DNA of 21,885 bases, from the UHGV virus genome UHGV-0198133; one strand, 5' to 3'. The translations under genes were made by a program, and so were the position numbers. Positions within the stretch are counted from its first letter, which is position 1. Each line of letters starts with the position of its first letter. Origin of the DNA: a virus. The notes under the pieces were generated by a model. It was not told the DNA's origin. It searched no databases and saw only the letters and a program-made list of their open reading frames with translations. Shown one piece after another: positions 1 through 21,073 of this stretch.

Positions 1-70
1 TTATGAAGGCTCCGGCAGTGGCGACTGGCGCACTGACGGTTTCATCGTGGGTGTCGGTTATAAATTCTGA
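1..70 (+). CDS. lom: 3' end of an Ail/Lom-family outer-membrane protein gene (partial, start outside window)
   Basis: Frame beginning at base 2 reads YEGSGSGDWRTDGFIVGVGYKF then TGA at 68-70. A C-terminal aromatic residue after a GVGY beta-strand is typical of Ail/Lom beta-barrels, and the position directly upstream of stf matches lambda J-lom-stf-tfa order. Confidence 0.5.
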   Translation, partial: YEGSGSGDWRTDGFIVGVGYKF

Positions 71-96
71 TTAGCCAGGTAACACAGTGTTATGAC

Positions 97-124
97 AGCC
101 CGCCGGTTCAGGCGGGCTTTTTTG
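97..124 (+). terminator. Rho-independent terminator after lom
   Basis: GC stem agcccgcc / ggcgggct with loop ggttca, followed by a T-run (ttttttgtg). Confidence 0.5.
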
Positions 125-134
125 TGGGGGGAAT

Positions 135-2666
135 ATGGCAGCAGTAAAAATCTCAGGCGTGCTGAAAGACGGTGCAGGAAAACCGGTACAGAACTGCACC
201 ATTCAGCTCAAAGCAAAACGTAACAGCACCACGGTTGTGGTGAACACGGTGGCCTCTGAAAATCCGGATGAAGCCGGGCGTTACAGTATGGACGTTGAGT
301 ACGGTCAGTACAGCGTTATTCTGTTGGTGGAGGGATTCCCGCCGTCACATGCCGGGACCATCACCGTGTATGAAGATTCTCAACCCGGTACGCTGAATGA
401 TTTTCTCGGTGCCATGACGGAGGATGATGCCCGTCCGGAGGCACTGCGCCGTTTTGAGCTGATGGTGGAAGAGGTGGCGCGTAACGCGTCCGCAGTGGCA
501 CAGAACACGGCAGCCGCGAAGAAGTCAGCCGGCGATGCCAGCACATCAGCCCGTGAGGCGGCAACCCATGCGACTGATGCTGCAGACTCAGCACGCGCAG
601 CCAGCACGTCAGCCGGACAGGCCGTGTCGTCGGCTCAGTCAGCGTCTTCCAGCGCAGGAACGGCATCAGCAAAAGCCTCTGAGGCATCGAAAAGTGCTGC
701 TGCTGCAGAGTCCTCAAAAAGCGCGGCGGCCACCAGTGCCGGTGCAGCGAAAACGTCAGAAACGAATGCGGCAGCCAGCGTTACCGCCGCTGAAAAATCG
801 GCAGAAAGCGCTGCATCGTCCGCTTCAACAGCCACAACGAAGGCTGGCGAAGTCACTGAACAGGCCACTGCAGCTGCGAGGTCTGCTTCCGCAGCGAAGA
901 CATCTGAGACGAATGCGAAAGCGTCGGAAACCCGTGCCGAATCCTCAAAAACGGCAGCCGCATCGTCCGCCAGTTCGGCGGCGTCATCGGCATCATCTGC
1001 GTCTGCTTCAAAAGATGAGGCGACTAAACAGGCGTCAGCAGCGAAAGGCAGCGCCACGACGGCATCCACGAAGGCGACAGAGGCAGCTGGCAGTGCGACG
1101 GCAGCAGCTCAGAGCAAAAGTGCGGCAGAATCCGCAGCAACGCGCGCCGGGACGGCAGCAAAACGGGCAGAGGATATTGCATCCGCTGTGGCGCTTGAGG
1201 ATGCGAGTACGACGAAAAAGGGGATAGTACAACTCAGTAGTGATACCAACAGCACGTCTGAAACACTGGCCGCGACATCGAAAGCGGTTAAGGCGGTAAT
1301 GGATGAAACAAACAAGAAAGCCCCATTAAACAGCCCGACACTGACCGGAACACCAACGACGCCAACTGCGCGACAGGGAACTAATAATACCCAAATCGCA
1401 AGCACGGCTTTCGTTATGGCTGCGATTGCCGCCCTTGTAGATTCGTCACCTGACGCACTGAATACGCTGAACGAGTTAGCGGCGGCGCTGGGAAACGACC
1501 CGAATTTTGCGACCACCATGACTAACGCGCTTGCGGGTAAGCAACCGAAAGATGCCACCCTGACGGCGCTGGCCGGGCTTGCTACTGCGGCAGACAAGTT
1601 TCCGTATTTTACGGGGAATGATGTCGCCAGCCTGGCAACCCTGACAAAAGTCGGGCGGGATATTCTTGCGAAATCGACCGTTGCCGCTGTTATCGAATAC
1701 CTCGGTTTACAGGAAACGGTAAATCAGGCTTCTGGTGCGTTGCAGAAAAACCAGAACGGCGCGGATATTCCAGGAAAAGATACCTTCACCAAAAATATTG
1801 GTGCCTGCCGCGCATATAGCGCATGGCTGAATATTGGTGGCGATAGTCAGGCCTGGACAACCGCACAATTCATTTCGTGGCTGGAGAGTCAGGGAGCATT
1901 TAACCATCCTTACTGGATGTGCAAAGGCTCATGGGCTTATGCAAATAATAAGGTCATTACAGATACAGGTTGCGGAAATATTTGTCTTGCAGGTGCTGTG
2001 GTGGAAGTTACTGGCACTCGCGGCGCAATGACCATACGCGTTACCACGCCGAGTACGTCCAGCGGCGGCGGAATCACTAACGCTCAATTCACTTATATTA
2101 ATCATGGTGATGCTTACGCTCCTGGCTGGCGACGAGACTACAACACGAAAAACCAGCAGCCTGCATTTGCTTTAGGGCAAACAGGAAGCACTGTCGGAAA
2201 TGATAAAGCTGTTGGCTGGAACTGGAATAGCGGGGTCTATAACGCAAATATTGGTGGCGCATCGACATTAATCCTCCACTTCAATATGAATACGGGGAGC
2301 TGCCCTGCTGTACAGTTCCGCGTGAATTACAGGAACGGCGGTATTTTTTATCGTTCAGCGCGTGATGGTTATGGATTTGAGGCTGACTGGTCAGAGTTTT
2401 ACACCACAACCCGCAAACCTTCTGCGGGAGATGTTGGTGCATATACGCGGGCAGAATGTAACTCAAGGTTTATTACAGGTATTCGCCTTGGCGGTCTGTT
2501 ATCTGTTAAGACATGGCATGGTTCCGGCTGGTCTGACAGGTCAGGTTATGTCGTTACGGGTTCAGTTAACGAAAACCGTGATGAATTAATTGATACAATT
2601 CAGGCAAGGCCAATTCAGTATTGCATTAATGGGGTGTGGTATAACGCGGGGAGTATTGAACGATGA
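135..2666 (+). CDS. stf: Side tail fibre protein (lambda Stf-like N-terminus, P2 gpH-like distal region)
   Basis: 843-aa ORF. N-terminus [27 protein letters not shown] matches my recollection of lambda/Rac Stf. A long Ala/Ser/Thr-rich low-complexity segment follows, then motifs shared with P2 gpH ([62 protein letters not shown]). Confidence 0.85.
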
Positions 2667-3205
2667 TGCACTTAAAAAACATTACTGCTGGCAACCCTAA
2701 AACAAAAGAGCAATACCAGCTAACGAAACAATTTAACATCAAATGGCTTTATACAGAGGATGGGAAAAACTGGTATGAGGAACAAAAGAACTTTCAGCCT
2801 GATACGTTGAAAATGGTCTATGACCACAACGGCGTTATTATTTGTATTGAAAAGGATGTTTCAGCAATTAATCCGGAAGGCGCAAGCGTCGTTGAATTAC
2901 CTGATATTACAGCAAATCGCCGGGCTGATATTTCGGGTAAATGGATGTTTAAGGATGGCGTGGTAATTAACCGGGAATGCACTTATGAAGAACTGGTGCA
3001 GCAGGCAAAAAATAAAAAGAGCTTATTAATGCGACAGGCCGATGATTGCATGGCACCCCTTCGGGATGCTGTGGATTTGGATATGGCGACAGAGGGGGAA
3101 AAGGAACAGTTACTGACCTGGAAGAAATATCGGGTGTTACTAAACCGTGTTGATACATCGACCGCGCCGGATATCGAATGGCCGGAAGAACCAGACACAA
3201 TGTAA
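2663..3205 (+). CDS. tfa: Tail fibre assembly chaperone (P2 gpG / Tfa family)
   Basis: 180-aa ORF whose ATG overlaps the stf stop (ATGA). N-terminus [25 protein letters not shown] and internal [14 protein letters not shown] resemble P2 gpG/Tfa as recalled. Confidence 0.85.
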
Positions 3206-3361
3206 GCGAAAAAGAAAAACCGCAGACACGACGTATGCAGGACGTGCTGCGGTTGGCTGGCGAACTTTCGATAGTGCGAGTATTGAATGATTTCCAGCCG
3301 TTATTGATTTTATATAACTGTAGTGGAGTTATTCAACACACAGGCAAAACAGAATAATCTG

Positions 3362-3399
3362 AGAAAAAAGCGTGCTTCGTCAGTCCGGGGCGAAGCACG
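3362..3399 (-). terminator. Hairpin with T-run on the minus strand (putative intrinsic terminator)
   Basis: Inverted repeat cgtgcttcg (3371-3379) / cgaagcacg (3391-3399) with an 11-nt loop. The A-run at 3363-3369 gives a U-run after the stem on the minus strand. Confidence 0.4.
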
Positions 3400-3566
3400 T
3401 CTGAATGACACCTGAAAATTTCCCGTCCGTTAAGTGTCCATCCCGAGAGAAGTGGGGAACCATAACACCCTGTCGGGACGCAGAAAGAAACAACACAACT
3501 TGCAGGGATATTTCTCGATACTACGTCAATGGGGGGTGTTAAATTATTACACTTAGTTACAAATAG

Positions 3567-3600
3567 AAAAGCCTCTGACTTCATAAGCAGAGGCTTTTCT
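3567..3600 (+). terminator. Hairpin with flanking A-run and T-run (putative bidirectional terminator)
   Basis: Inverted repeat aaaagcctctg / cagaggctttt around a 10-nt loop, followed by ttttct. Confidence 0.4.
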
Positions 3601-3718
3601 GAAATGCACGTGCATTTTGCGTGTATATTTTGGTCTTTTTCTGGTCCGCTCACTGTCTGGTCAGTGTCCATAAGTGACTGTTTTTATAGTCTCTGTCTGG
3701 TTGTGGTCCTGTCAAAAG

Positions 3719-3763
3719 TGGTGGAGCTGGCGGGAGTTGAACCCGCGTCCGAAATTCCTACAT
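3719..3763 (-). other. Prophage attachment core: duplicated 3' end of ssrA (tmRNA)
   Basis: Reverse complement reads ATGTAGGAATTTCGGACGCGGGTTCAACTCCCGCCAGCTCCACCA, a tRNA-like T-arm (GGGTTCAACTCCC) plus acceptor 3' end ending CCACCA, matching the E. coli ssrA 3' end from memory. No tmRNA body follows on the 5' side, so this is the partial duplicate copy. Confidence 0.6.
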
Positions 3764-3848
3764 ACCATTTTTACTATAGCAAAAACAGTAGTTTGCATTT
3801 AAAAACAGTGCGTTATTGTTATGTAGTGTTTGTCCATTTTACTAATTT

Positions 3849-4895
3849 TTAATGCGCTGCCGCCAAAGTGCCGCCAACTTCGTTAGGAACTAGAGTTAGT
3901 GCTTCAGAAACGTAATCAGCCCATTCCTGCGAAGAAAATGCTTGTAAAGAATTGGCGTGTTTTCTGAATTTAAACCTCAACTTACCAACATATAAGTAAT
4001 TATAAATGTTGTCGTAATGTGGTATATCTTCATTATATATCAAACGAATTAGTTTTCTTGATAGAAGATATGATATTTCTAAAATATCGGCGAATACTTG
4101 TTCTTCAAGTGTAAATGTTTTTAATTGATACCCATCATATTTTATCAAACAGTATACATGAGATATGGGGGATGTACATATCAGGTCTAATAACGAGGCT
4201 GTATTATATGACAAAGTGTTAAGTCGAATCATGTAACTTAATGGATTATATTCATCTATAGAGTGTTGAACCGACAGAGTATTATTAATTGTGTTTAAGT
4301 ACTCCTTTAATTGCACTAAAAAATCAGGGTTTGCGGTGAAGTTAGATGTGGTCTCTATATTTGATTTGTTGTATATTTTTGTATATAAAAGATATGGGTT
4401 GGAAATTTTAATTTCATCTGCTGTAAACAAAGTGATATTTGGTTCGCCATTGAATTTAATGAGGTTTCCATCTGAGTCTCTCGCGCTTTGAAGATTGTAG
4501 GCGAATATTTCCTTTGTTTTCTCAATAAAGTTTTTCTCATGTGCTAAATATCTATCGACTGCATTTTTCGTTTCAGCGGTGTTGATCTGAGCTTCGGTTT
4601 GTATAGTGCGATGTATATTGTTGACGATCGAAGCCAAAGGAACTGCACTAGCTAGCAATAGTAGAGGGAATTTGCTTATTTCGTAAAATCTTGAATAGCC
4701 ATGTGCGGAGAGTACTGGTTCTTTTCCCCACCATGTGAAAAAACCAAAATAGATAAAGGAAAATAAAGGTGTTAAAACTGAAATCCAAAATAATTTCTGA
4801 CGAAATAAATTTCTTTTATCAAGCATGTACCATTTTTTACTATTGTAATAAATACTAATAAAACGATTGCTGCAATATAAATCACTGTATAACAA
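3849..4895 (-). CDS. Hypothetical AT-rich predicted membrane protein between att and int (cargo/moron)
   Basis: 348-aa ORF, visibly much more AT-rich than the flanking phage genes. Hydrophobic N-terminal segments (LFWISVLTPLFSFIYFGFFTWW and FPLLLLASAVPLASIV) are followed by an Asn/Tyr/Ile-rich soluble region. Start is uncertain: TTG at 4895 or in-frame ATG at 4826. Confidence 0.55.
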   Translation of the reverse strand: MLYSDLYCSNRFISIYYNSKKWYMLDKRNLFRQKLFWISVLTPLFSFIYFGFFTWWGKEPVLSAHGYSRFYEISKFPLLLLASAVPLASIVNNIHRTIQTEAQINTAETKNAVDRYLAHEKNFIEKTKEIFAYNLQSARDSDGNLIKFNGEPNITLFTADEIKISNPYLLYTKIYNKSNIETTSNFTANPDFLVQLKEYLNTINNTLSVQHSIDEYNPLSYMIRLNTLSYNTASLLDLICTSPISHVYCLIKYDGYQLKTFTLEEQVFADILEISYLLSRKLIRLIYNEDIPHYDNIYNYLYVGKLRFKFRKHANSLQAFSSQEWADYVSEALTLVPNEVGGTLAAAH

Positions 4896-4914
4896 GTATC
4901 ACTTAACATGATTT

Positions 4915-5931
4915 TCACTCAATATAATTTAAAGGATTCTTAGTTACTGCATCTTCTAAGTGTTCTGGTGAAAAATGAGAATAGATCATCGTCATTTTTA
5001 TATCGGCATGGCCCAGAATATCGCGCAGCACCAGTATGTTTCCGCCATTCATCATAAAATGGCTGGCGAATGTATGACGTAGCACGTGAGTGCATTGGCC
5101 CTCTGGCAGCTCGATGCCAGCTCGCTTTACTGCTCGTTCAAAGGCTTTTCTGCACGGGGTGAATAGCTTCCCTCTGTTCTTGGGGAGTTCGTCATACAGA
5201 TCTTGAGATATCGGCACGGTGCGGTTTTTCTTACCCTTCGTCTTGGTATAAGTGATGCGGTATTTAGATAACTGATGGCCCTGCAGGTTTTCGGCTTCAC
5301 TCCAGCGTGCGCCGGTGGCCAGGCATATTTTTGCAATCAAAAGCAGACTGGGGTTTTGAGAATCAGCGCAGGCATCTAGCAGACGTTTAATTTCTTCCGA
5401 GGTCAGGAACGCCAGTTCCCCCTCAGCGATTTTAAATGTTGGCAGCCCGGCGAGAGGATTTGGTGCTGACCAGTGGCCTAGTTTTTTCAATGTGCCAAAA
5501 ACCGATGATAGGTTACGTTGCTCAAGATTCACCGTGCGTGGTTTTACTGGCGACATTAGTGTGCCGTCTTCGTTACGAACGTCACCTTTTAACCGTGCTT
5601 CGCGGTATTTCGTAAAGTCACCGGCTGTCAGTTCTGAGGCGATGGGGTCGCCTAGACCATTACAGATAATTCTAAGTTTCGCCATGAGGCGCTTGGGGTC
5701 TGCGAGTGTCTGACCATACAGGGAATACCAAAGCTCAATTAATTCTGATAGGCGTCGCCGATCATCCTTTTCACCCAACCACGGTTTTTTATTCACTTCT
5801 TCCATTGTGAAGCTTTCAAAAGCAATGGCTTCGCCTTTCGTAGCAAATTGCTTACGCACGCGCTTACCATTGCGTCCATTGGGATAGCACTCACACAACC
5901 ATTTTCCGTTCGGCTGTTTTCTGATGGTCAT
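4915..5931 (-). CDS. int: Tyrosine site-specific integrase (P2/186 Int family)
   Basis: 338-aa ORF adjacent to att. C-terminal catalytic region contains HVLRHTFASHFMMNGGNILVLRDILGHADIKMTMIYSHF (R, H-x-x-R and Y of the tyrosine recombinase signature). Confidence 0.9.
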   Translation of the reverse strand: MTIRKQPNGKWLCECYPNGRNGKRVRKQFATKGEAIAFESFTMEEVNKKPWLGEKDDRRRLSELIELWYSLYGQTLADPKRLMAKLRIICNGLGDPIASELTAGDFTKYREARLKGDVRNEDGTLMSPVKPRTVNLEQRNLSSVFGTLKKLGHWSAPNPLAGLPTFKIAEGELAFLTSEEIKRLLDACADSQNPSLLLIAKICLATGARWSEAENLQGHQLSKYRITYTKTKGKKNRTVPISQDLYDELPKNRGKLFTPCRKAFERAVKRAGIELPEGQCTHVLRHTFASHFMMNGGNILVLRDILGHADIKMTMIYSHFSPEHLEDAVTKNPLNYIE

Positions 5932-5932
5932 A

Positions 5933-6565
5933 TCAAAGGCTCTTAATGATTTTCAGTGCGCGGCCTACTACCTCAATGTCATCTAGGCCACACTCAAACG
6001 ATGAATCATCCTGATGTACTACTAATTTGTTTCCCGGGAGTCGAGTCAATTTAACAATGCTTTTTATCCCGTCGATATCGACTAACCACATACCATTTAC
6101 TGGTGGTGTTTGGTTGCGATCTATTAAATAAGAATCACCAGAAGTAGTCACCAGCAGTAGGTTGCTTGAGTCTGAGGGGAGTATGCTGCTATCAATGATT
6201 GCTTTTCCAGCATCGATCAATAAACCACCGTTGAGAGTCGCCTTGTCAATTTCAGGAGATACTAGTTCAGAAAGAGGTATAACCTTGCTGGAGTTCACGG
6301 AATTGATATTTTTTTGGGGTTCAATGTTTGAACCTGGCTCCCCCTGTCCGGTGGTTAGCCACAGTAAAGAAACTCCTGTTTCCAAGGCGCACTGAATCAC
6401 CCACTCTGCAGGAAAACTATCTCTTAAGTATCTGTTTGCCATGGTGCTTTTTGATGCGCCTAAGTGATCGCAAAGTTGCTGTCTGGACTTGAAATCATAG
6501 GCTGCCATTAGTCTATGGATAGCCTCTCTTCCCCCTGTATTCTCTCCAACCTTTACATGTATCAT
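5933..6565 (-). CDS. cI: 186-type CI immunity repressor
   Basis: 210-aa ORF divergent from the lytic operon, with its stop overlapping the int start (cI-int operon as in 186). N-terminal region has an HTH-like segment (LGASKSTMANRYL). Family assignment rests on position and size. Confidence 0.7.
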   Translation of the reverse strand: MIHVKVGENTGGREAIHRLMAAYDFKSRQQLCDHLGASKSTMANRYLRDSFPAEWVIQCALETGVSLLWLTTGQGEPGSNIEPQKNINSVNSSKVIPLSELVSPEIDKATLNGGLLIDAGKAIIDSSILPSDSSNLLLVTTSGDSYLIDRNQTPPVNGMWLVDIDGIKSIVKLTRLPGNKLVVHQDDSSFECGLDDIEVVGRALKIIKSL

Positions 6566-6577
6566 TTTTTAATCCTG

Positions 6578-6625
6578 TTGACGTATCAAATATTGGGTCG
6601 TAGTATCTCGATGTATCAAATATTG
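6578..6625 (+). promoter_or_regulatory. Lysis-lysogeny switch region: candidate rightward promoter with repeated operator-like elements
   Basis: TTGACG (6578-6583), 17-bp spacer, TAGTAT (6601-6606). Direct repeat gtatcaaatattg at 6583-6595 and again at 6613-6625, 30 bp apart, overlapping the promoter elements between divergent cI and apl. Confidence 0.4.
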
Positions 6626-6684
6626 AATCAAGTAAAACGAGATAAAACGACGTAAACCAAACCTTAATCGGGAGATACTGCACT

Positions 6685-6927
6685 ATGAGCACTGATATTT
6701 CAATTCGTGTACCAAAAGAGATGGCTACGCCTGCAGAGTTCGCGGAATGGGAAGGTATCTCCCGCGGCTCCGTGTATCAAAAAATTCACCATGGTCAGCT
6801 TGCTAAATACATGGTCAAGAAAGAAAAAAACAAAGGCCGCGTAAGCCTGCGTTATTTAATGTACAAAACCGATCAGGTCCGTGAATCCCTCGGTCATTCC
6901 AACTTCCGCGTCATTGTTGGTAAGTAA
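6685..6927 (+). CDS. Apl/Cox-like excisionase and switch regulator
   Basis: 80-aa ORF, first gene of the rightward operon opposite cI, with an SD-like gggaga upstream. Assignment is by size and position only. Confidence 0.5.
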   Translation: MSTDISIRVPKEMATPAEFAEWEGISRGSVYQKIHHGQLAKYMVKKEKNKGRVSLRYLMYKTDQVRESLGHSNFRVIVGK

Positions 6928-6959
6928 GTTCAATTATGAGAACTTTCTAAGGGGGTAGC

Positions 6960-7469
6960 ATGTTTGATTATAAGATTTCCAAACACCCGCATTTTGATGA
7001 AGCCTGTAGAGCTTTTGCACTTCGTCACAATATGGCGAAGCTGGCAGAACGTGCAGGAATGAATGTCCAGACTCTGCGAAACAAACTCAACCCAGATCAA
7101 CCGCATCAGCTCAATGCGCCAGAAATCTGGCTGCTTACCGATCTGACTGAAGATTCAACGCTGATAGATGGTTTTCTGGCACAGATTCACTGCCTGCCAT
7201 GTGTACCGATTAATGAGGTAGCAAAAGAGAAACTGCCGCATTACGTCATGAGTGCAACCGCAGAGATCGGGCGTGTTGCTGCAGGTGCGGTATCTGGCGA
7301 TGTAAAAACCAGTGCCGGTCGTCGTGATGCCATCAGCAGCATTAATTCTGTAACACGACTGATGGCGCTGGCGGCTGTTTCATTGCAGGCCCGTTTACAG
7401 GCTAACCCTGCGATGGCGAGTGCAGTTGATACTGTGACTGGCCTCGGTGCTTCATTCGGTTTGCTGTGA
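6960..7469 (+). CDS. cII: CII-like lysogeny-establishment regulator
   Basis: 169-aa ORF immediately after apl-like, with aagggggtagcATG providing an SD. Size and position match 186 CII. Confidence 0.55.
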   Translation: MFDYKISKHPHFDEACRAFALRHNMAKLAERAGMNVQTLRNKLNPDQPHQLNAPEIWLLTDLTEDSTLIDGFLAQIHCLPCVPINEVAKEKLPHYVMSATAEIGRVAAGAVSGDVKTSAGRRDAISSINSVTRLMALAAVSLQARLQANPAMASAVDTVTGLGASFGLL

Positions 7470-7476
7470 GGTGCTT

Positions 7477-7773
7477 ATGCTGACGAAAGAACCATCATTT
7501 GCGTCGCTGCTGGTAAAACAAAGTCCGGCAATGCACTACGGTCACGGCTGGATCACGGGTGAGGATGGAAAACGCTGGCATCCATGTCATTCACAAGATG
7601 AATTGCTGTCTGAATTGACCACGAGGAAACGGAGAAAGTCCAAATGTATGCGGCAGAAAGTGAAGTGGTTTATCAGTTTCGTTACAGAGGGGAGAGTTAT
7701 TCAGTACCTGAAGATGATTTGCTCTGTTGCTATCCGTCATTGTCGGGCGATGGCAGTTACTTTTTCACGTTAA
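7477..7773 (+). CDS. Hypothetical early protein (start taken at first ATG; 3' part overlaps the next ORF)
   Basis: ORF in the fil/dhr position of 186-like phages. First ~55 aa look protein-like (MLTKEPSFASLLVKQSPAMHYGHGWITGEDGKRWHPCHSQDELLSELTTRKRRKS); the tail looks like an out-of-frame read. Confidence 0.35.
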   Translation: MLTKEPSFASLLVKQSPAMHYGHGWITGEDGKRWHPCHSQDELLSELTTRKRRKSKCMRQKVKWFISFVTEGRVIQYLKMICSVAIRHCRAMAVTFSR

Positions 7774-7868
7774 AGGATGGGACGTTTTTACGGGGAGAGC
7801 AGGTTAAAGAGACGATACGAAAAAATGTATCTCCTCTTGAGCGTTACCGTAAGAACAAAGAACGATAG
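7644..7868 (+). CDS. Hypothetical early protein
   Basis: 74-aa ORF with GGAG about 9 nt upstream of the ATG. Overlaps the 3' end of the previous ORF in another frame. Confidence 0.4.
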   Translation: MYAAESEVVYQFRYRGESYSVPEDDLLCCYPSLSGDGSYFFTLKDGTFLRGEQVKETIRKNVSPLERYRKNKER

Positions 7869-7890
7869 CTGCGTTTGGGGGATATGAAGT

Positions 7891-8232
7891 ATGGCAATTA
7901 ATGGCGCTGCAGCAACTGTTCCATTAAGCCCCGGTGAACGCCTGAATGGACTTAATCACATTGCGGAGTTAAGGGCGAAAGTTTTTGGCATGAATATTGA
8001 GTCAGAGCTTGAGCGGTTTATTAAAGATATGCGTGATCCACGGGATATTAATAGCGAACAAAATAAACGGGCACTGGCTGCCATATTCTTTATGGCAAAA
8101 ATTCCAGCTGAACGTCATAGCATCAGCATTAATGAGCTGACCACTGACGAAAAGCGGGAGTTGATTAAAGCAATGAATCATTTTCGTGCAGTGGTGAGCT
8201 TATTTCCCAGACGGCTAACCATGCCGAATTAA
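7891..8232 (+). CDS. Hypothetical early protein
   Basis: 113-aa ORF on the same strand within the early operon; no recognisable motif. Confidence 0.5.
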   Translation: MAINGAAATVPLSPGERLNGLNHIAELRAKVFGMNIESELERFIKDMRDPRDINSEQNKRALAAIFFMAKIPAERHSISINELTTDEKRELIKAMNHFRAVVSLFPRRLTMPN

Positions 8233-8299
8233 CCAACTAATGAAATTCATGGCGTAAACCCGCCGGGCATCCCTTTATCTAAATTCAGGAGAATTGACA

Positions 8300-8533
8300 A
8301 TGCGTAATATTGAAACCCGCGCCACTAAAACCGGACCGGATGATGCAGGGCTTAATCTTTTACTGACAGAGGCTCGTCTGGAAGAACGCCGGGCAAGGGC
8401 TGAAGCAATGGCTGCCCGCCTTGATAGTCTTGCGTGTCATATCACATCCCGCCAGCTAAACCACGTCGAAGCGGCAGAACTGCTGCGTGTGACTGCTGAA
8501 GCAATCCAGAACGAAGCGCAGGAGATCCACTAA
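8300..8533 (+). CDS. Hypothetical early protein (start moved to ATG at 8300)
   Basis: caggag at 8286-8291 lies 8 nt upstream of ATG 8300; the ORF track began at TTG 8294. Stop overlaps the next start (TAATG). Confidence 0.5.
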   Translation: MRNIETRATKTGPDDAGLNLLLTEARLEERRARAEAMAARLDSLACHITSRQLNHVEAAELLRVTAEAIQNEAQEIH

Positions 8534-8760
8534 TGGCTGATGCAATGGATCTCGTACAGCAGCGCGTTGAAGAAGAACGCCAGCGCCATATCCGTGCTGC
8601 CCGTGCCAAAACACCGGGCGTGTCCCGCGTGCTTTGCATTGAGTGTGAAGCGCCAATTCCGCCAGTACGACGCCGCGCCATTCCGGGTGTGCAGCTTTGC
8701 ATTACCTGCCAGGAAATCGCAGAACTGAAAGGCAAACATTACAACGGAGGTGCTGTATGA
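8533..8760 (+). CDS. TraR/DksA-family C4 zinc-finger protein
   Basis: 75-aa ORF with CIECEAPIPP...QLCITCQ, i.e. CxxC-x17-CxxC at the C-terminus, as in phage and plasmid TraR/DksA-like proteins. Confidence 0.7.
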   Translation: MADAMDLVQQRVEEERQRHIRAARAKTPGVSRVLCIECEAPIPPVRRRAIPGVQLCITCQEIAELKGKHYNGGAV

Positions 8761-9614
8761 GCACCATCCTGAAATGGGCGGGTAATAAAACTGCCATTAT
8801 GTCCGAACTGAAAAAATACCTTCCTGCTGGCCCGCGACTGGTTGAACCTTTCGCGGGTTCCTGTGCAGTGATGATGGAGACGGATTACCCCAGCTATCTG
8901 GTTGCGGATATTAATCCTGATTTAATCAACCTCTATAAAAAGGTTGCTGCTGATTGTGAATCGTTTATATCTCGCGCCAGAGTTTTATTTGAGATCGCAA
9001 ACAGGGAGGTGGCTTATTACAACATAAGGCAGGAGTTTAATTACTCAACTGAAATTACTGATTTCATGAAAGCGGTATATTTCCTGTATCTCAATCGTCA
9101 CGGTTACCGTGGTTTATGTCGCTATAACAAGAGCGGGCATTTCAACATTCCCTACGGTAATTATAAAAATCCGTATTTCCCTGAAAAAGAAATTCGCGCA
9201 TTTGCAGAAAAAGCCCAGCGAGCAACGTTTATCTGCGCCAGCTTTGATGAAACGCTGGCGATGTTGAAGGCAGGGGATGTGGTGTATTGCGATCCGCCGT
9301 ATGACGGTACGTTTTCCGGCTATCACACTGATGGTTTCACTGAAGATGACCAGTATCACCTGGCATCCGTTCTTGAACATCGGTCATCAGAAGGACATCC
9401 GGTCATTGTTTCTAACAGTGACACATCCCTGATCCGTTCGCTGTATCGCAATTTTACTCACCACTATATCAAGGTAAAACGCAGCATCGGTGTGGCAGCT
9501 GGCGAGGGTAAATCAGCAACAGAAATCATTGCTGTTTCCGGGCCGCGCTGCTGGGTGGGATTTGATTATTCGCGTGGCCTGGATAGTTCTGCCGTGTACG
9601 GAGTACGTGCATGA
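8758..9614 (+). CDS. dam: DNA adenine (N6) methyltransferase, Dam-like
   Basis: ILKWAGNK near the N-terminus, FAGS (motif I) and DPPY (motif IV), the order characteristic of Dam-type MTases. True start is ATG 8758 with GGAGG upstream; the longer track ORF from 8697 overlaps the TraR-like gene. Confidence 0.8.
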
Positions 9615-12025
9615 GCCATGCCGATATGAACAACTGCTGCGGCTTTAACGAGGCTGCCGCAGCGTTCTCATGGAACAGCCCGAAAAAGGCCATTAACCCT
9701 TATCTGGACCCGGCGGAAGTTGCGCCGGTTTCTGCGCTTTCAAACCTGATCGCTCTGTACGCTGCCGATAACGAGCAGGAACACCTGCGCCGCGAGGCAC
9801 TGAGTGATCAGGTCTGGGAGCGTTATTTCTTTAATGAATCCCGTGATCCTGTCCAGCGCGAAATGGAGCAGGATAAGCTCATTAGTCGGGCAAAGCTGGC
9901 GCATGAGCAGCAGCGTTTTAATCCAGATATGGTCATTCTGGCGGACGTCAATGCCCAGCCTTCCCATATCAGCAAGCCGCTGATGCAACGTATTGAATAC
10001 TTCAGCAGCTTGGGCAGGCCAAAGGCTTATTCCCGCTATTTGCGTGAGACGATTAAGCCATGTTTGGAGCGACTGGAGCATGTACGCGACAGCCAGCTAT
10101 CTGCATCTTTTCGTTTTATGGCAAGCCATGTAGGGCTGGACGACCTGCTGATTCTGCCTGAAATGAGTCAGGATCAGGTGAAACGCCTGTCTACTCTTGT
10201 CGCTGCGCATATGAGCATGTGTCTTGATGCCGCTTGTGGTGATTTGTACGCCACCGATGATGTTAAGCCAGAAGAAATCCGCAAGACATGGGAAAAGGTG
10301 GCAGCAGAAACCCTGCGACTGGATGTTATCCCGCCTGCGTTTGAGCAACTTCGTCGGAAAAGAAACCGCCGTAAACCCGTGCCCTATGAACTCATTCCGG
10401 GTTCGCTGGCGCGTATGTTGTGCGCCGATTGGTGGTACCGGAAATTATGGAAGATGCGTTGCGAATGGCGGGAAGAGCAGTTGCGTGCTGTTTGCCTGGT
10501 CAGCAAAAAAGCATCTCCCTATGTCAGCTATGAAGCCGTGATGCATAAACGTGAGCAGCGCCGTAAGTCGCTGGAGTTTTTCCGTTCTCATGAACTGGTG
10601 AACGAAGACGGCGACACGCTGGACATGGAGGATGTGGTAAACGCCAGCAGCAGCAACCCGGCGCATCGCCGCAATGAGATGATGGCCTGTGTTAAAGGTC
10701 TGGAGCTTATCGCAGAAATGCGCAGTGACTGTGCCGTTTTCTACACTATCACCTGTCCGTCGCGTTTCCATTCCACGCTCAATAACGGCAGACCAAACCC
10801 GACCTGGACAAACGCGACGGTAAGACAAAGCAGCGATTATCTGGTCGGCATGTTTGCTGCATTTCGTAAGGCTATGCACAAAGCCGGGTTGCGCTGGTAT
10901 GGCGTGCGGGTGGCTGAACCGCATCATGACGGCACAGTTCACTGGCACCTGTTGTGTTTCATGCGCAAAAAAGACCGCCGCGCCATTACTGCATTGTTGC
11001 GTAAGTTTGCCATCCGTGAAGACCGCGAGGAGCTGGGCAATAACACGGGGCTACGCTTTAAGTCTGAGCTGATAAACCCGCGCAAAGGTACGCCAACAAG
11101 CTACATCGCGAAATACATCAGTAAGAACATTGACGGGCGTGGTCTGGCTGGCGAGATCAGCAAGGAAACGGGTAAATCCCTGCGTGATAACGCTGAATAC
11201 GTTAATGCCTGGGCGTCTCTGCATCGTGTTCAGCAATTCCGCTTCTTTGGCATTCCGGGGCGTCAGGCTTACCGTGAACTGCGATTGCTGGCTGGTCAGG
11301 CGGCAAGGCAACAGGGGGACAAAAAAGCAGGTGCGCCGGTACTGGATAACCCGCGCCTTGATGCAATCCTGGCTGCTGCTGATGCTGGTTGTTTTGCCAC
11401 CTACATCATGAAGCAGGGCGGCGTACTGGTTCCCCGCAAATATCACCTCATCAGAACTGCTTATGAAATCAACGAAGAGCCGACCGCCTATGGCGATCAC
11501 GGTATTCGTATTTATGGCATCTGGTCACCCATTGCAGAGGGCAAGATCTGCACTCATGCGGTGAAGTGGAAAATGGTTCGTAAGGCCGTTGACGTTCAGG
11601 AGGCGGCAGCCGACCAGGGCGCTTGCGCCCCTTGGACTCGTGGCAATAACTGTCCCCTTGCTGAAAATTTGAACCAACAGGAGAAAGATAAATCAGCTGA
11701 TGGGGACCCCAGAACGGACATTACCCGCATGGATGACAAGGTGTTGCACGATTACCTGCACAGTATGAACAAAAAGGAGCGCCGGGAATTGGCTGCAAGG
11801 TTACGTCTGGTGAAACCGAAACGGCGTAGAGACTACAAACAGCGAATTACAGACCATCAACGACAGCAGCTCGTCTATGAACTGAAATCCAGAGGATTTG
11901 ATGGCAGCGAGAAAGAGGTCGATTTACTCCTTCGCGGCGGCAGTATTCCGTCAGGAGCAGGCCTGCGTATCTTCTATCGGAACCAGCGTTTGCAGGAAGA
12001 TGATAAGTGGCGGAACCTGTATTAA
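9611..12025 (+). CDS. A: Rolling-circle replication initiator (P2 gpA / 186 RepA family)
   Basis: 804-aa ORF coupled to dam (ATGA overlap). Contains an HUH-like motif ([13 protein letters not shown]) and a twin-tyrosine motif YIAKYISKN resembling phiX174 gpA YVAKYVNK. Confidence 0.85.
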
Positions 12026-12095
12026 TTACGCTGGTTAACAATTCGTGCTCTTAATAATATCAGGCATATCAGGCTGATAAGCGTAAAAAAAACGT

Positions 12096-12138
12096 TTTAC
12101 ATCAGTAAGATTATTATATACTGTAAATATAAACAGTG
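12096..12138 (+). promoter_or_regulatory. Candidate SOS-regulated promoter with LexA box
   Basis: taCTGTaaatataaACAGtg at 12119-12138 fits the LexA box CTGT-N8-ACAG with an AT-rich spacer. Upstream TTTACA (12096-12101) and a 17-nt spacer place the -10 over the box. Confidence 0.5.
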
Positions 12139-12179
12139 GTTATACATACAGTATTGCGTGTGGTGTCATAGGAGGAAAG

Positions 12180-12368
12180 ATGCAGGACTATTTTTTGGAG
12201 TCTTTGAAGCTCCAGCGCATTGATTTTTTTCTTAAGCTTGTAGCGGCTAGTGAGTGCGATGATGAAGAGAAGCGGCTTGCTATCCAGTGGGTTTCGGAGC
12301 TGACCGATGAGTTAATGGCGAAAATCCGTACTCATGAGTACAACCGTTCAATGGATCTCCCCGGTTAG
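12180..12368 (+). CDS. Small SOS-controlled protein, Tum-like antirepressor candidate
   Basis: 62-aa ORF with AGGAGG immediately upstream, downstream of the LexA box, in the position after repA where 186 carries LexA-repressed tum. No sequence-level confirmation. Confidence 0.45.
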   Translation: MQDYFLESLKLQRIDFFLKLVAASECDDEEKRLAIQWVSELTDELMAKIRTHEYNRSMDLPG

Positions 12369-12952
12369 GCTTAGAAACGTTGCTGGCGTTAGGACTTGAT
12401 TCTGACGCTAGCAAGGTTGATCAACGAGCCATGCGAGGCGTTAGTCATGGGAAAAAAATAGTAACTTCCAGATTTTGCTTCGTGCCAGGTATTGAGTAGT
12501 TTTATCGCCAGAGGGGCTGTTAGCGCTCAAACTACTAATGGAGCCACACCTTAGATGAGTGATTTGGCTTAAGCTATGATTATATAGTTTCGCTGTACGG
12601 CGGCCTTGCTTTTTATTGAAGCGACCAGACTGGAACAACGGCGAAAGGAGACTAACGATACGCACCAGTTTTTTGAAAAGGTACAGTTATCTAGATTGGT
12701 TGCCAATTTTCGTTGAAACCTGACATACCATTAGGTCATTGCTTTAGAAAAATTAATACTTGATGTGAGAATTGCTTCAAAACATCTAGAATTAAAGTTT
12801 CTTTACTAGTATGCTTCATCACTTGGTCGTTGGGTTGAGTGCAAAAGCTAAGGCTGATGCCCAGTACGCTATCCGCATTATTGCCAGAGAACCGATTCGA
12901 AACCGGAATCTGGCAGAGCATGGGCGCAAGTGCTGGCTTCCCAACGGCCTCG

Positions 12953-13921
12953 TTATTTATAATATGCTGACTTCAAAACCACTCGTCTTTCAACCTGCTG
13001 TGATAGCATTACCGCGTTAGTCCAATCTTTTGGATACCTTATTTCTTCTATAACACGAATATAAGCACATACTTTATTTTTTCCCTCTCCTTTGGCATAA
13101 GTAACCTCTAGATTATTAAATTTCAATAAGTGCTCTCTTCTTTGGTAAGTAAAACAGCCGTAATCACGGACATCAGAAGAAGTAATAGCATGAGTTGAAG
13201 GAAACCGAACTAGTAAATTTCTCAAGTAGGGAATAATGTCCAAACTCGTTGCTTTGTTTTCTTCTCTGCGACTCTTTCTGAACATATGTCTCCAACCCAG
13301 CCGTGTAAGCTCGATTTTCCCAAGCACCGGAGATGTGATTTCTTTCTGTTCAGAATAACGTTTTTTAACAAACGCTCGCCGATTATTAAGTAGTGAGTTT
13401 CTTCTTCTTACATGGATTCCTTTTGCTCCAGTTTCACCTGCACGTACCATGGACATACAGCGAGCCAGGTCAAACCGTGTGGCCGGAGTGATTAAGTGAT
13501 ATTCTCCATAAGTTTGGTTTTTAAGGGTAGTGTTTGGATGTATATAGGCCCAAAATGCTTTACGATTAGTTCTGTCAACCCAAACGACACATATATGGTG
13601 AGTTGTCCTTTTGGCTGCTTTTTTTGCGGCCGAATTTAATACAAAACCTTTCTCTAATAAATGACCATAAGTTGCCCCTGATTTAACTTGCGATAATATA
13701 AGCATTCTTTCTTTTGATGCCCATGGATGTTCGAAGGATAATATTAAATCTATTTTTGAATTGTCGTCTTCCCTGGAACCCCAGTGCCCCTCTCCTCTAC
13801 AAGCAAGAATGAATTGACTCATTGCATAAGATTCGGCGTCACTGCCGTTAACTGAGTTAAACTGTCTTGTTTCTAGCACAGTTGGTATTGGTCGTGATGC
13901 AAGTAAACTGAAAGATCCCAC
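12953..13921 (-). CDS. Hypothetical AT-rich orphan protein in the repA-cos cargo slot (possible nuclease-like N-terminal domain)
   Basis: 322-aa ORF with GTG start at 13921 preceded by GGAGA (alternative ATG at 13822). N-terminal region has a pattern compatible with a PD-(D/E)xK-like core (E...KIDLILSF...MLILSQVKSG). Flanked by ~580 bp and ~600 bp of non-coding DNA. Confidence 0.5.
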   Translation of the reverse strand: MGSFSLLASRPIPTVLETRQFNSVNGSDAESYAMSQFILACRGEGHWGSREDDNSKIDLILSFEHPWASKERMLILSQVKSGATYGHLLEKGFVLNSAAKKAAKRTTHHICVVWVDRTNRKAFWAYIHPNTTLKNQTYGEYHLITPATRFDLARCMSMVRAGETGAKGIHVRRRNSLLNNRRAFVKKRYSEQKEITSPVLGKIELTRLGWRHMFRKSRREENKATSLDIIPYLRNLLVRFPSTHAITSSDVRDYGCFTYQRREHLLKFNNLEVTYAKGEGKNKVCAYIRVIEEIRYPKDWTNAVMLSQQVERRVVLKSAYYK

Positions 13922-14358
13922 TTATAGTTCTCTCCAAAAAATTGCATAATCTTGAACGCTAAAAAATAGTATACAAACTAAAGTATTTTTTCATTTAATT
14001 CAATGTATTGGCTAAAATTAAGACATTTATAGCTATATGTACTAGATAACATAGCGTTGTTTTCCTTTTGAAATCTCTTCTTGTGGTAACACAACAGTAT
14101 TTACTCAAGTAGTTTGTCACTGCATGGGGAGATTTTGCTATGTCCGCGGCATCATACAGATGCGATAGATTTTCAGCATGACCTTGGGTAGCAAATCTGT
14201 AGGTATCATCCATTGCACCTCAAAGTAACTCTGGTGCATACCTATGCTGCATGAAAATGAATGATCGCTAGTGGATCGTTTAAGTCGAAGCCTGCCAGTT
14301 CTGACGAGCTTTTGCTTATGTTATGCAACTGCATGAAAACCACTACACAAAGCGGGCA

Positions 14359-14377
14359 GGCGTGGCGGGGATACGAG
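14359..14377. other. Candidate cos site
   Basis: GGCGTGGCGGGGA at 14359-14371 matches the first 13 nt of the 19-nt cohesive end I recall for phage 186 (GGCGTGGCGGGGAAAGCAT); the remaining bases diverge. Lies between repA-side and portal-side genes as expected. Confidence 0.4.
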
Positions 14378-14529
14378 CGCGCGCTAAGTCATATAAGAGT
14401 TATATATTGATTTGATTGCTGGACATGCATACAGTATCGCTCTATCATCTAATAAATCTTAGAGTATTTGGCAATGTTTGGATAAAATGGAACCTAACTT
14501 ATTCATAATCCGCTAAACAGGGATGTCAG

Positions 14530-15444
14530 ATGCCATACCAATTGGTAGAGCTTAGCCCCGTAGCTAACGATCTTGAACAGTTAGGAACCAAAGAGAAGTT
14601 TTGGTTCTATTTCTCCGATGACACTGTAAATTTGCAGTTGTTTAAGTACTCTAGGCCAGGTACTGGCGAGCATTGGTCTGAAAAGTGTGCTGCTGAGTTA
14701 TGTCATTTGCTTAACATTCCACATGCTAGCTATGATTTGGCGCGATACAATGGTCGATTCGGTGTGGTGACTCAGAATATCATTCCATCTGGTTTCCGGA
14801 TGGTAATGGGAAATGAAGTGCTTCACAGTTCGACATTCGATTATCCTGGGCCTTTACAAGCCGGGGAAAAGCCGGTAAGGGTCAGAGAACACACTGTCAC
14901 AAGGGTATTGGGTTGTTTGGATAGGGAATCTATCAAGCCTCCTCCGAGTGTATATGATCTAACCGGGCTAAATGCAGCAGATGTATTTTGTGGATATTTG
15001 ATGCTCGATGCACTTGTGAGTAATCAAGATCGCCATCATGAAAATTGGGCGATCATGCTTAACAATGAAACTGGTGAGCAGTTTTTGTGTCCAACATACG
15101 ATCATGCCGCTAGTTTAGGAAGGGAGATGTTAGATGATGAGCGTAACGAACGGCTTAATACTAAAGATAAAAATCGACAAATCCCATGTTTTGTAAGAAA
15201 AGCTCGCTCTGAGCTATTCAAAGCAAAAACTGATAAAAAGCCCTTGCTGACCGTTGAAGCATTTCAACATGCAGTTGAAGGGAGAGTTGCCGCTCGCGAC
15301 CATTGGTTAGGTAAGTTGAGCGTTTTAACAGAAGATTCCATTACAGATGTGTTTAACCAAGTGCCTTCATCGTGTATATCCGACAGTGCACGTAGATTTG
15401 CAACGTTAATGGTAATGGAAAATCGCAGAAGGTTACTAGAATGA
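14530..15444 (+). CDS. HipA-like Ser/Thr protein kinase, compact core only
   Basis: 304-aa ORF. Gly-rich loop LGTKEKFWF (compare HipA GAQEKT), catalytic-loop-like LVSNQDRHHENWA (compare HipA D-x-H-x-K-N) and Mg-binding-like PTYDHAAS 24 residues later (HipA D309 to D332 is 23). No HipA N-terminal subdomain. Confidence 0.6.
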   Translation: MPYQLVELSPVANDLEQLGTKEKFWFYFSDDTVNLQLFKYSRPGTGEHWSEKCAAELCHLLNIPHASYDLARYNGRFGVVTQNIIPSGFRMVMGNEVLHSSTFDYPGPLQAGEKPVRVREHTVTRVLGCLDRESIKPPPSVYDLTGLNAADVFCGYLMLDALVSNQDRHHENWAIMLNNETGEQFLCPTYDHAASLGREMLDDERNERLNTKDKNRQIPCFVRKARSELFKAKTDKKPLLTVEAFQHAVEGRVAARDHWLGKLSVLTEDSITDVFNQVPSSCISDSARRFATLMVMENRRRLLE

Positions 15445-16181: not shown

Positions 16182-16186
16182 ATGAA

Positions 16187-16212
16187 GAAAAGCCACCAAA
16201 CGGTGGCTTTTC
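16187..16212. terminator. Bidirectional intrinsic terminator between the kinase/HIRAN operon and portal gene Q
   Basis: aaagccacc / ggtggcttt stem with loop aaac, flanked by an A-run upstream and T-run downstream; serves convergent transcripts. Confidence 0.55.
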
Positions 16213-16215
16213 TTA

Positions 16216-19019: not shown

Positions 19020-19065
19020 GGCACAAACCTACAGCCTTGAATGAAGGCTTTCCCCGCCTGCGGTT

Positions 19066-19995: not shown

Positions 19996-20011
19996 TGGAG
20001 CACAAAACCTG

Positions 20012-21070: not shown

Positions 21071-21073
21071 CCC

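Follow-up and report, generated by a model that had tools for sequence, protein, structure and literature searches.

The locus analysed here raises the question of why a short copy of the 3' end of ssrA stands between tail fibre genes of lambdoid type and the integrase of a P2-family prophage, and whether the DNA on its two sides belongs to one element or to two. The window, by which we mean the whole stretch of 21,885 nucleotides, is a short-read metagenome contig assembled with MEGAHIT from an E. coli-like genome, the contig name suggesting k = 119, a value that exceeds the length of the repeat. Comparison of the window with related loci indicates that it very probably represents the seam of a tandem array, in which two unrelated temperate phages occupy the 3' end of ssrA. 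The arrangement is real but ordinary, having been documented previously in E. coli. The features that compose the seam and its two flanks are collected in Table 1.

Table 1. Features of the window from the lambdoid side (left) to the Fels-2-like side (right), with the evidence for each.
Feature	Position	Strand	Evidence
lom 3' end (Ail/Lom outer-membrane protein gene)	1-70	+	alignment to the annotated ETEC1732 Ail/Lom gene
Terminator-like hairpin and T-run between lom and stf	98-123	+	GCCCGCC...GGCGGGC followed by TTTTTT
stf, lambdoid side tail fibre gene, 843 aa, mosaic	135-2666	+	PF08400, tail-fibre PHROGs
tfa, tail fibre assembly protein gene, 180 aa	2663-3205	+	PF02413, phrog_136
Non-coding lambdoid DNA, common to prophages at other att sites	3206-3520		homology to serT/hyaA prophages
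attP arm of the lambdoid ssrA-specific integration module	3521-3718		occurs only beside ssrA
ssrA 3' copy, displaced att fragment of the Fels-2-like prophage	3719-3763	-	45/45 identity
Lambdoid att core, last 27 nt of the 45-nt copy	3719-3745	-	27-nt copies in relatives
AT-rich attP arm of the Fels-2-like prophage, 27% GC	3764-3848		near-identity to the Fels-2 att flank
Cargo gene, membrane protein, frameshifted, ~1 kb	3849-4909	-	phrog_17460 match, function unknown
Tyrosine integrase, 338 aa	4915-5931	-	PF24624 and PF00589
CI repressor, 186/Fels-2 type	5933-6565	-	PF07022 and PF16452
Rest of the Fels-2-like prophage in the window	6685-21885		F719 match; runs off the window end

The segment at the seam matches the 3' end of E. 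coli ssrA at all 45 positions on the minus strand, and therefore appears reverse-complemented on the plus strand; a chance ssrA match of 45 nt arose in none of 100 shuffles. Alignment against the intact ssrA of ETEC1732 discloses the 3' end without the tmRNA body, and because neither ARAGORN nor Rfam finds a tmRNA gene in the window, the segment is a fragment and not a gene. Other RNA families are likewise absent from the window at the Rfam gathering thresholds. The fragment preserves the orientation of ssrA in all related loci and so corresponds to a tDNA fragment in the sense of Islander. The initial annotation had read it as the partial att duplicate, an ssrA 3' copy on the minus strand, while allowing that it might fail to align to ssrA; the exact alignment bears out the reading and removes the reservation.

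Two identity blocks are nested within the fragment, including (i) the entire 45 nt, which constitute the ssrA-identical part of the annotated 47-nt attP of Fels-2, the remaining last 2 nt lying beyond the CCA end, and (ii) the last 27 nt, which recur as a separate copy at the far end of the lambdoid prophages of ETEC1732 and of E. coli tcmA_3 (NZ_CP059835.1), as well as in the attP of the phage LMessi. The 27-nt copy expected beyond the left end of the window would read TGGTGGAGCTGGCGGGAGTTGAACCCG followed by T. The notion that the two prophages share att cores is thus correct as far as the nesting goes, but the cores differ in length (45 nt versus 27 nt) and the integrases are unrelated, the Fels-2-like and lambdoid enzymes showing 30% identity over about 60 residues; the lambdoid int that belongs to the window itself lies outside it.

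To the right of the fragment, the window displays the int end of a P2-family prophage, as had been proposed, comprising the cargo ORF, int, cI, apl, cII and the genes that follow. Positions 3714-21822 are 99.96% identical to an annotated prophage of E. coli F719, and the synteny follows the F719 annotation: beyond cI the order is apl, cII, fil, dam, gpA, a cargo hotspot located between gpA and gpQ (12026-16215), portal, terminase, scaffold, capsid and small terminase. The element carries its own int and its own tDNA fragment, and the close resemblance of its regulatory, replication and structural genes to those of Fels-2, combined with P2-family synteny, places it in the Fels-2-like class (Felsduovirus, Peduoviridae). 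The same element is 99.7-99.96% identical in at least five genomes, where it has different neighbours. Its attP arm contains two AAAAACAGT repeats, at 3781-3789 and 3801-3809, to which Int may bind.

To the left, the window holds the tail-fibre end of a lambdoid prophage, again in agreement with the first description of the locus. Because the window begins within lom, only the last 70 nt of this gene are present; they end in YKF* with a TGA stop at 68-70, and the lom gene call on the contig matches PF06316. The domain matches in the two following genes are strong, with PF08400 at the N-terminus of Stf (E 7e-72) and PF02413 in Tfa (E 3e-44), and the hairpin that separates lom from stf has a folding energy of -19.3 kcal/mol (z -3.0). 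The succession of lom, stf and tfa is that of the end of a lambdoid late operon, and in relatives of 98-99% identity this block comes after the tape-measure, L, K, I and J genes. The mosaic character of the tail fibre region is evident in 1690-2973, spanning stf and tfa, which is 96% identical to the S'-U' genes of Mu/D108. The exact Tfa protein was traced only to lambdoid prophages at the serT/hyaA site.

The 513-bp spacer between tfa and the ssrA fragment (3206-3718) comprises two parts of different distribution. Positions 1-3520 of the window are 98-99% identical to the lambdoid prophages at the serT/hyaA site, and this homology is lost at 3520, ~200 bp short of the att core; the serT prophages likewise switch to an arm of their own about 140 bp from tRNA-Ser, and the break together with the matching switch is the pattern expected of exchangeable integration modules. 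The remaining part, 3521-3718, is found only adjoining ssrA, in 451 of 5426 complete E. coli genomes, with 82-97.5% identity among the matches listed; the arm of the window is ~97% identical to its nearest relatives. It contains the repeats TCWCTGTCTGGT at 3650-3661 and 3690-3701, which may be Int arm sites. Two ORFs that extend over att arm and ssrA copy, 3333-3671 on the minus strand and 3529-3852 on the plus strand, have no Pfam or PHROG match; they are taken as non-coding.

Folding of the spacer reveals three strong hairpins, at 3218-3254, 3371-3399 and 3565-3600, with energies of -19, -14.6 and -24.2 kcal/mol and z values of -3.6, -2.3 and -5.5, respectively. All three have a T-run on the minus strand, and the one at 3565-3600 has a T-run on the plus strand in addition, so that the first two are terminator-like on the minus strand and the third would be a bidirectional terminator. 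The initial annotation was right that such hairpins exist, but had counted two. A simple terminator scan returned only a weaker site, at 3604-3626; T-runs that are interrupted or lie on the minus strand kept it from registering the three strong ones.

Other strains carry one or the other of the two elements at ssrA without its partner. For the lambdoid one, the segment running from tfa through the 513-bp spacer to the ssrA junction recurs at 96.4% identity in eight complete E. coli genomes, ETEC1732 among them, where it adjoins an annotated, intact ssrA with smpB next to it, and the far end of the lambdoid prophage of ETEC1732 carries its own integrase together with the 27-nt ssrA copy. In F719, intact ssrA flanks the Fels-2-like prophage on the ogr side and the 45-nt copy flanks it on the int side; the downstream neighbour differs from that in the window. 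The free phage LMessi presents the corresponding attP, in which the 27-nt core joins an arm homologous to 3540-3718 to a second arm, with int following. Finally, the complete genome of tcmA_3 displays the full array, comprising ssrA, a Fels-2-like prophage, the 45-nt copy, a lambdoid prophage with int and xis, and the 27-nt copy; here, as in F719, intact ssrA lies at the expected end of the array. The proposal of two integrations at ssrA that gave rise to tandem prophages is thereby upheld.

Among the 5426 complete E. coli genomes, not one has the exact pair of elements seen in the window or covers 80% or more of window positions 1-6600, and a search of GTDB species representatives for the 76-nt exact junction gave 0 matches. 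The Fels-2-like arm is matched at 80% coverage or more in 5 genomes, and in many more a related arm aligns with ~65% of the query. Outside the complete genomes, the contig of the window is recorded in 3 samples, and an independent SPAdes assembly, ERZ1034865, carries the same seam in its contig NODE_722, which begins 28 nt inside the lambdoid arm and runs through the 45-nt copy into the Fels-2-like prophage with no mismatch in the stretches compared.

Since the window includes neither intact ssrA nor the lambdoid integrase nor the distal lambdoid att copy, the array is reconstructed from these relatives. Read in the direction of ssrA, that is, along the minus strand, it would comprise (i) smpB with intact ssrA, both beyond the right edge of the window; (ii) the Fels-2-like prophage, its ogr end leading and its int end trailing; (iii) the displaced 45-nt ssrA fragment, from 3763 to 3719; (iv) the lambdoid prophage, whose tail-fibre end comes first (att arm, tfa, stf and lom) and which continues past the left edge of the window; and, presumably, (v) another 27-nt ssrA fragment beside the lambdoid integrase. 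Each attP carries a copy of the ssrA 3' end, of 45 nt in the Fels-2 type and 27 nt in the lambdoid type, so that integration restores a functional ssrA and moves the original 3' end beyond the prophage. We regard it as most likely that a lambdoid prophage was already resident when the Fels-2-like phage entered the regenerated ssrA; we infer this order of integration, and equally the completeness of both prophages beyond the window.

The opposite history, with the Fels-2-like phage as the earlier arrival and the displaced 45-nt fragment as the subsequent target of the lambdoid phage, would produce an identical sequence, and it is compatible both with the occurrence of either element singly at ssrA in other strains and with the presence, inside the 45-nt fragment, of the full 27-nt block used by the lambdoid integrase family. 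We nevertheless consider it unlikely, if worth keeping in view. A lambdoid phage arriving second would have had two usable targets, one of which alone yields the observed order, whereas for a Fels-2-like phage arriving second the intact gene was probably the sole target, because the distal lambdoid copy is just 27 nt long. The near-identity of the Fels-2-like element across at least five genomes (99.7-99.96%, compared with ~97% for the lambdoid arm) also suggests a recent spread, and lambdoid residents at ssrA are the commoner ones, with 451 genomes versus 5 that carry the Fels-2-like arm at 80% coverage or more.

Whether the resident of the preferred history is a whole prophage is a separate matter. 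The window includes only 3.7 kb of lambdoid DNA and the contig breaks in lom, so the lambdoid element could be a decayed remnant, reduced to its tail-fibre end and att arm, and the array a single live prophage next to a fossil. Such remnants are common downstream of ssrA, as exemplified by the IS-disrupted CP4-57-like integrase of F719, and many genes are frameshifted in the lambdoid prophage of tcmA_3. We judge this reading improbable: stf and tfa are intact ORFs with 98-99% identity to prophages that appear complete, and a break in lom is typical of short-read assemblers at repeats shared among lambdoid prophages. Moreover, the contig graph of ERZ1034865 has a branch point precisely where the 27-nt core ends, as the attP of an excised or duplicated lambdoid phage would produce; if such a phage is present, its attP would read ...CTGTCAAAAGTGGTGGAGCTGGCGGGAGTTGAACCCG followed by T. 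This branch hints that the lambdoid prophage still excises from within the array. Recombination or co-mobilisation of the two prophages, as the initial annotation envisaged, is purely speculative.

It is very unlikely that the seam is an assembly artefact in which junctions from two strains were joined through shared ssrA sequence. The contig does derive from a metagenome assembled with MEGAHIT, and complete E. coli genomes lack the exact pair; the shared sequence, however, amounts to 45-50 nt, far short of the k = 119 to which the contig name points, the SPAdes contig from another sample crosses the same seam independently, and the closed tcmA_3 genome shows the same architecture. Least credible, with a chance close to nil, is a rearranged or hybrid genome in which the tail-fibre genes are part of the P2-family element, an eventuality that the initial annotation had itself set out: P2-family and lambdoid phages are known to swap tail-fibre modules, and 1690-2973 of stf/tfa resembles Mu S'/U' and the P2-family phage P88, but the att fragment stands between the two gene sets, lambdoid prophages with no P2-family element nearby have the lom-stf-tfa block, preceded by J and the tape-measure gene, and the identical F719 prophage ends at the 45-nt copy and possesses P2-type tail-fibre and assembly genes of its own, so that stf and tfa do not belong to the P2-family element.

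Between att and int, the Fels-2-like prophage carries a cargo gene of 33% GC, which is frameshifted by a 1-nt deletion relative to F719 in a homopolymer run at 4833-4838; the intact form, P0001, comprises 353 aa. The cargo protein has no match in PADLOC or NCBIfam searches, P0001 shows only a weak, sub-threshold match to DUF3810 in Pfam, and the AF2 model (pLDDT 84.8) has no significant fold match. The family consists of uncharacterised prophage membrane proteins of Enterobacteriaceae, with a conserved N-terminal half that contains three transmembrane helices and an exchangeable C-terminal half, and one distant member gives a weak score for a HEPN ribonuclease domain. A doubtful, though conceivable, proposal is that the family is a new kind of exclusion or abortive-infection system carried by phages, and that the one-base homopolymer slip has inactivated or switched it in this prophage. 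Apart from the seam itself, the cargo slots between att and int and between gpA and gpQ hold uncharacterised genes that may matter for phage defence.

The value of the locus is mostly one of annotation, in that the 45-nt fragment is the boundary between the prophages, which automated callers would probably fuse into one region of ~80 kb. It also offers a clean example of two unrelated integrases that target ssrA through identity blocks nested one in the other (45 nt and 27 nt). The break at 3520 illustrates that lambdoid phages which are nearly identical elsewhere can exchange their integration modules.

Among named phages, the right-hand prophage most closely resembles Fels-2. Protein identities, CI apart, range between 89 and 100% (Int 92%, Apl 100%, CII 92%, gpA 89%, portal 89%, large terminase 97% and capsid 91%), and 71% of the DNA aligns at 83% identity; gene order, the 45 nt of ssrA in attP, the near-identical att flank and the position of int distal to intact ssrA are common to both. 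The differences include (i) the host, which is E. coli, whereas Fels-2 and SopEPhi are P2-family phages of Salmonella (Felsduovirus); (ii) the CI repressor, only 58% identical, so that immunity probably differs; and (iii) the additional 1-kb cargo gene between att and int and the other cargo in the gpA-gpQ hotspot. For both Salmonella phages, integration into ssrA has been reported (Pelludat et al. 2003, as cited in PMC3448106). The label 186-like, given at first to this prophage, fits its int-cI / apl-cII-fil organisation and its integrase of the '186 type', a class that targets tRNA-like genes (PMC3448106). The prophage nonetheless falls outside the 186 group (Eganvirus), with 54% identity in Int, as opposed to 92% with Fels-2, 34% in CI and 36% in gpA, and 24% of the DNA aligning at 69.5%; furthermore, the att of 186 is at ileY (tRNA-Ile) and that of the window prophage at ssrA.

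The closest counterpart of the locus as a whole is that of tcmA_3, which shares ssrA, the Fels-2-like prophage, the 45-nt copy, the lambdoid att arm and the tfa/stf/lom/J genes. It differs in its lambdoid arm, ~91% identical, in having other stf and tfa genes, in the gene between att and int, which is another one of 401 aa, and in the many frameshifts among its lambdoid genes. The ssrA-integrating phages and prophages CP-1639, the PhiR12 series and LMessi possess an att arm homologous to 3521-3718 (80-83%) and the same 27-nt ssrA core; the comparison covered the att region, where the arms have diverged.

Tandem arrays of integrative elements at tRNA and tmRNA genes are reportedly the subject of 'Traffic at the tmRNA gene', a work of 2003 by Williams. 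Islander recorded 125 tandems and found the tmRNA gene to be the most enriched target (PMC4383910). The array proposed here would share with those at tDNA the serial elements, here at ssrA, the different integrases and a displaced 3' fragment for each element; it differs from them not in kind, but only in the specific pair of elements involved.

The 45-nt segment TGGTGGAGCTGGCGGGAGTTGAACCCGCGTCCGAAATTCCTACAT at the seam between the lambdoid and Fels-2-like prophages corresponds exactly, as reverse complement, to the final 45 nt of E. coli ssrA, CCA end included (45/45 identity; 0 matches in 100 shuffles). Alignment to intact ssrA genes places the end of this identity at position 3763, past which the next bases (ACCATTTTTACTATAGC...) differ from the tmRNA body, and neither ARAGORN nor Rfam detected a tmRNA gene anywhere in the window. 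The initial annotation, which took the segment for a minus-strand ssrA 3' copy with phage DNA replacing the body, was therefore correct. The fragment belongs to both prophages as an att site, distal for the Fels-2-like element and ssrA-proximal for the lambdoid one.

Features of the window on both sides of the ssrA fragment (gene names to the right of CI are taken from the annotation of a near-identical prophage)
Feature	Coordinates	Strand	Details
lom, 3' end only			last 70 nt, window opens inside gene; ends ...GVGYKF-stop
hairpin with T-run	98-123		folding
stf	135-2666		843 aa; PF08400, E 7e-72
tfa	2663-3205		180 aa; PF02413, E 3e-44
spacer hairpin 1	3218-3254		-19 kcal/mol, z -3.6; T-run on minus strand
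spacer hairpin 2	3371-3399		-14.6 kcal/mol, z -2.3; T-run on minus strand
spacer hairpin 3	3565-3600		-24.2 kcal/mol, z -5.5; minus-strand T-run, bidirectional
repeats TCWCTGTCTGGT	3650-3661, 3690-3701		candidate Int arm sites
ssrA 3' fragment	3719-3763	minus	45 nt
AT-rich stretch right of fragment			85 bp, 27% GC; holds two AAAAACAGT repeats
AT-rich cargo ORF	3849-4909	minus	
tyrosine integrase	4915-5931		
CI repressor	5933-6565		
apl, cII, fil, dam, gpA, cargo region, portal, terminase, scaffold, capsid, small terminase			past CI, in this order
gpA-gpQ cargo region	12026-16215		
ORF in cargo region	12953-13921	minus	322 aa
PDC-M03 A/B pair	14530-16181	+	two overlapping genes

The left side had been read as the right end of a lambdoid prophage, and the order lom-stf-tfa bears this out, as does the tfa-spacer-ssrA junction, which recurs at 96.4% identity in eight complete E. 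coli genomes, ETEC1732 among them; in all of these the junction leads into the annotated, intact ssrA, with smpB, ratA and the other usual genes after it. The ETEC1732 prophage has a tyrosine integrase of its own ~40 kb to the left, and just past this gene lies a 27-nt ssrA 3' copy (TGGTGGAGCTGGCGGGAGTTGAACCCG), the next base being T where ssrA has C. Beyond this copy (positions 8300-13300 of L004, the ETEC1732 sequence) there is a P4-like satellite with psu, a regulatory gene and a P4-type integrase, and elements are therefore arrayed in tandem at ssrA in ETEC1732 too, though the partner differs. The lambdoid arm adjoins ssrA in 451 of 5426 complete E. coli genomes, and prophage CP-1639 and the PhiR12 phages likewise carry the lambdoid att arm.

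Window positions 1-3520 display 98-99% identity to lambdoid prophages inserted at tRNA-Ser (serT) upstream of hyaA, a homology that ends at 3520; from 3521 rightward the window matches ssrA-type prophages only, and it is here too that the serT prophages turn to an att arm of their own, ~140 bp ahead of tRNA-Ser. This sharp module boundary at 3520/3521 thus defines 3521-3718 as one arm of an exchangeable integration module. The attP layout of the free phage LMessi confirms this assignment: it comprises (i) a homologous arm (83% identity), (ii) the same 27-nt core, (iii) another arm with homology to the ETEC1732 distal flank, followed by (iv) an integrase. The spacer 3206-3718 yielded no credible ORF in Pfam and PHROG searches, and folding gives three strong hairpins in place of the two terminators initially annotated there. 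The third hairpin is very stable and falls within the lambdoid att arm, ~120 nt downstream of where ssrA ends; ETEC1732, tcmA_3 and LMessi all retain it, and in single lysogens it may act as a phage-supplied terminator of ssrA transcription. Further left, positions 1690-2973, covering the stf C-terminus and the greater part of tfa, show 96% identity to the Mu/D108 S'-U' tail-fibre genes, with phage P88 matching likewise; the side tail fibre is therefore a mosaic of a lambda N-terminus and a Mu C-terminus.

To the right of the seam, window positions 3714-21822 match, at 99.96% identity, an E. coli F719 prophage, the ogr end of which adjoins intact ssrA and smpB and the int end the same 45-nt copy; past that copy, F719 carries an IS-disrupted CP4-57-like integrase and no lambdoid phage. 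The same att arm occurs at 99-100% identity in four further complete genomes, in at least three of which the match begins at the ssrA copy itself, so that the DNA on the other side is unlike that of the window. The designation '186-like' correctly describes the class of regulatory region and of integrase, yet the element is a relative of Fels-2, to which its proteins are far closer than to 186 (Int, 92% versus 54% identity; Apl, 100% versus 30%; CII, 92% versus 70%; gpA, 89% versus 36%). Fels-2 displays nearly the same att flank, and the 45 nt recur within its annotated 47-nt attP. Integration into ssrA has been reported for Fels-2 and SopEPhi (PMC3448106), whereas 186 integrates at ileY.

The window is a short-read metagenome contig, recorded in 3 samples: the exact stf protein pointed to the 21,965-bp ENA contig ERZ19693220 k119_9141, and the 10.7 kb of it that were compared match the window perfectly at an offset of 40 nt. 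A chimeric assembly join at the seam is very unlikely, given that the same array is found in the closed E. coli genome tcmA_3 and that an independent SPAdes contig crosses the seam; the sequence common to both contexts amounts to only 45-50 nt. In a survey of complete E. coli genomes, one genome, tcmA_3, had the lambdoid arm adjoining an unannotated ssrA sequence, its locus comprising (i) smpB and intact ssrA, (ii) a Fels-2-like prophage, ogr ... cI, int, with a different cargo gene, (iii) the 45-nt copy, (iv) the lambdoid arm, tfa-like, stf, lom, J ... xis, int, (v) a 27-nt copy, and (vi) IS elements with a CP4-57-like integrase remnant. This is the configuration predicted from the window, where tandem integration at ssrA had been proposed. 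The SPAdes contig, from ERZ1034865, has its first base 28 nt inside the lambdoid arm, crosses the 45-nt copy and continues in the Fels-2-like prophage, with 0 mismatches to the window in the stretches compared. In the same assembly, contigs NODE_5267 and NODE_722 (L017, L019) overlap by exactly 55 nt (3691-3745), with coverage of 22.7x on the lambdoid and 17.3x on the Fels-2-like side; the assembly graph therefore branches at the end of the 27-nt lambdoid core, a pattern that would arise if the sample also contained the attP junction of a lambdoid phage, excised or duplicated.

The attP of each phage holds the 3' part of ssrA, and an integrase-mediated crossover in this block splits the gene, the phage copy restoring ssrA and the old 3' end being pushed to the far side of the prophage, a principle set out in PMC4383910. 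Two such integrations leave two prophages in series with the displaced fragment between them. The two integrases, with 30% identity over 60 residues, are unrelated except for the catalytic motif. Their identity blocks are nested, the lambdoid 27 nt lying within the Fels-2-like 45 nt; position 28 is T in the LMessi attP and in both distal copies (ETEC1732, tcmA_3), which assigns the lambdoid crossover to the final 27 nt. The suggestion that the prophages share att cores is only partly right: the seam fragment serves both elements, but the blocks are nested and differ in length.

The sequence gives no order of integration; a resident lambdoid prophage joined later by the Fels-2-like phage is favoured because (i) a late Fels-2-like phage probably has the intact gene as its sole target, leading to the observed order, where a late lambdoid phage could use either of two sites, (ii) the Fels-2-like element is almost identical among genomes with different neighbours, which suggests recent spread, and (iii) lambdoid residents are commoner at ssrA. 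Either prophage should be able to excise alone; were the Fels-2-like element lost, the locus would revert to the ETEC1732 arrangement. For joint excision, an integrase would have to pair sites in which one of its arms or part of its core is missing, and co-mobilisation of both as one unit is regarded as unsupported.

The cargo gene between the att site and int is frameshifted, its homopolymer (six T at 4833-4838, + strand) having one base fewer than the run of seven in F719, so that the reading frame is lost for the first 25 codons, which include transmembrane helix 1. In its intact 353-aa form (P0001) the protein has three predicted transmembrane helices, with no significant fold match, no PADLOC or NCBIfam match and a weak sub-threshold match to DUF3810 as the sole Pfam signal. 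Members of the family occur only in Enterobacteriaceae and conserve the N-terminal half but swap the C-terminal one; one distant relative gives a weak score to HEPN_RiboL-PSP. In the gpA-gpQ region, a hotspot described by Rousset et al. (PMC9122126), two genes match the PADLOC candidate defence system PDC-M03 A/B (E 2e-122, 3e-93), the first with a weak HipA_C-like match and the second with a HIRAN domain, and the 322-aa ORF has no match in any library.

In 'Traffic at the tmRNA gene' (2003), Williams reportedly described the convergence of several integrase families on ssrA, with tandem arrays there. The textbook account of E. coli prophage clusters invokes tandem prophages with a common att site (PMC8112680). 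Islander catalogues 125 such arrays at tRNA/tmRNA genes, and among the targets the tmRNA gene shows the strongest enrichment (PMC4383910). The two types of element have been described before, as have their att sites, and a RefSeq genome already contains this pairing; the tandem arrangement is real and correctly read, but it is known rather than new.
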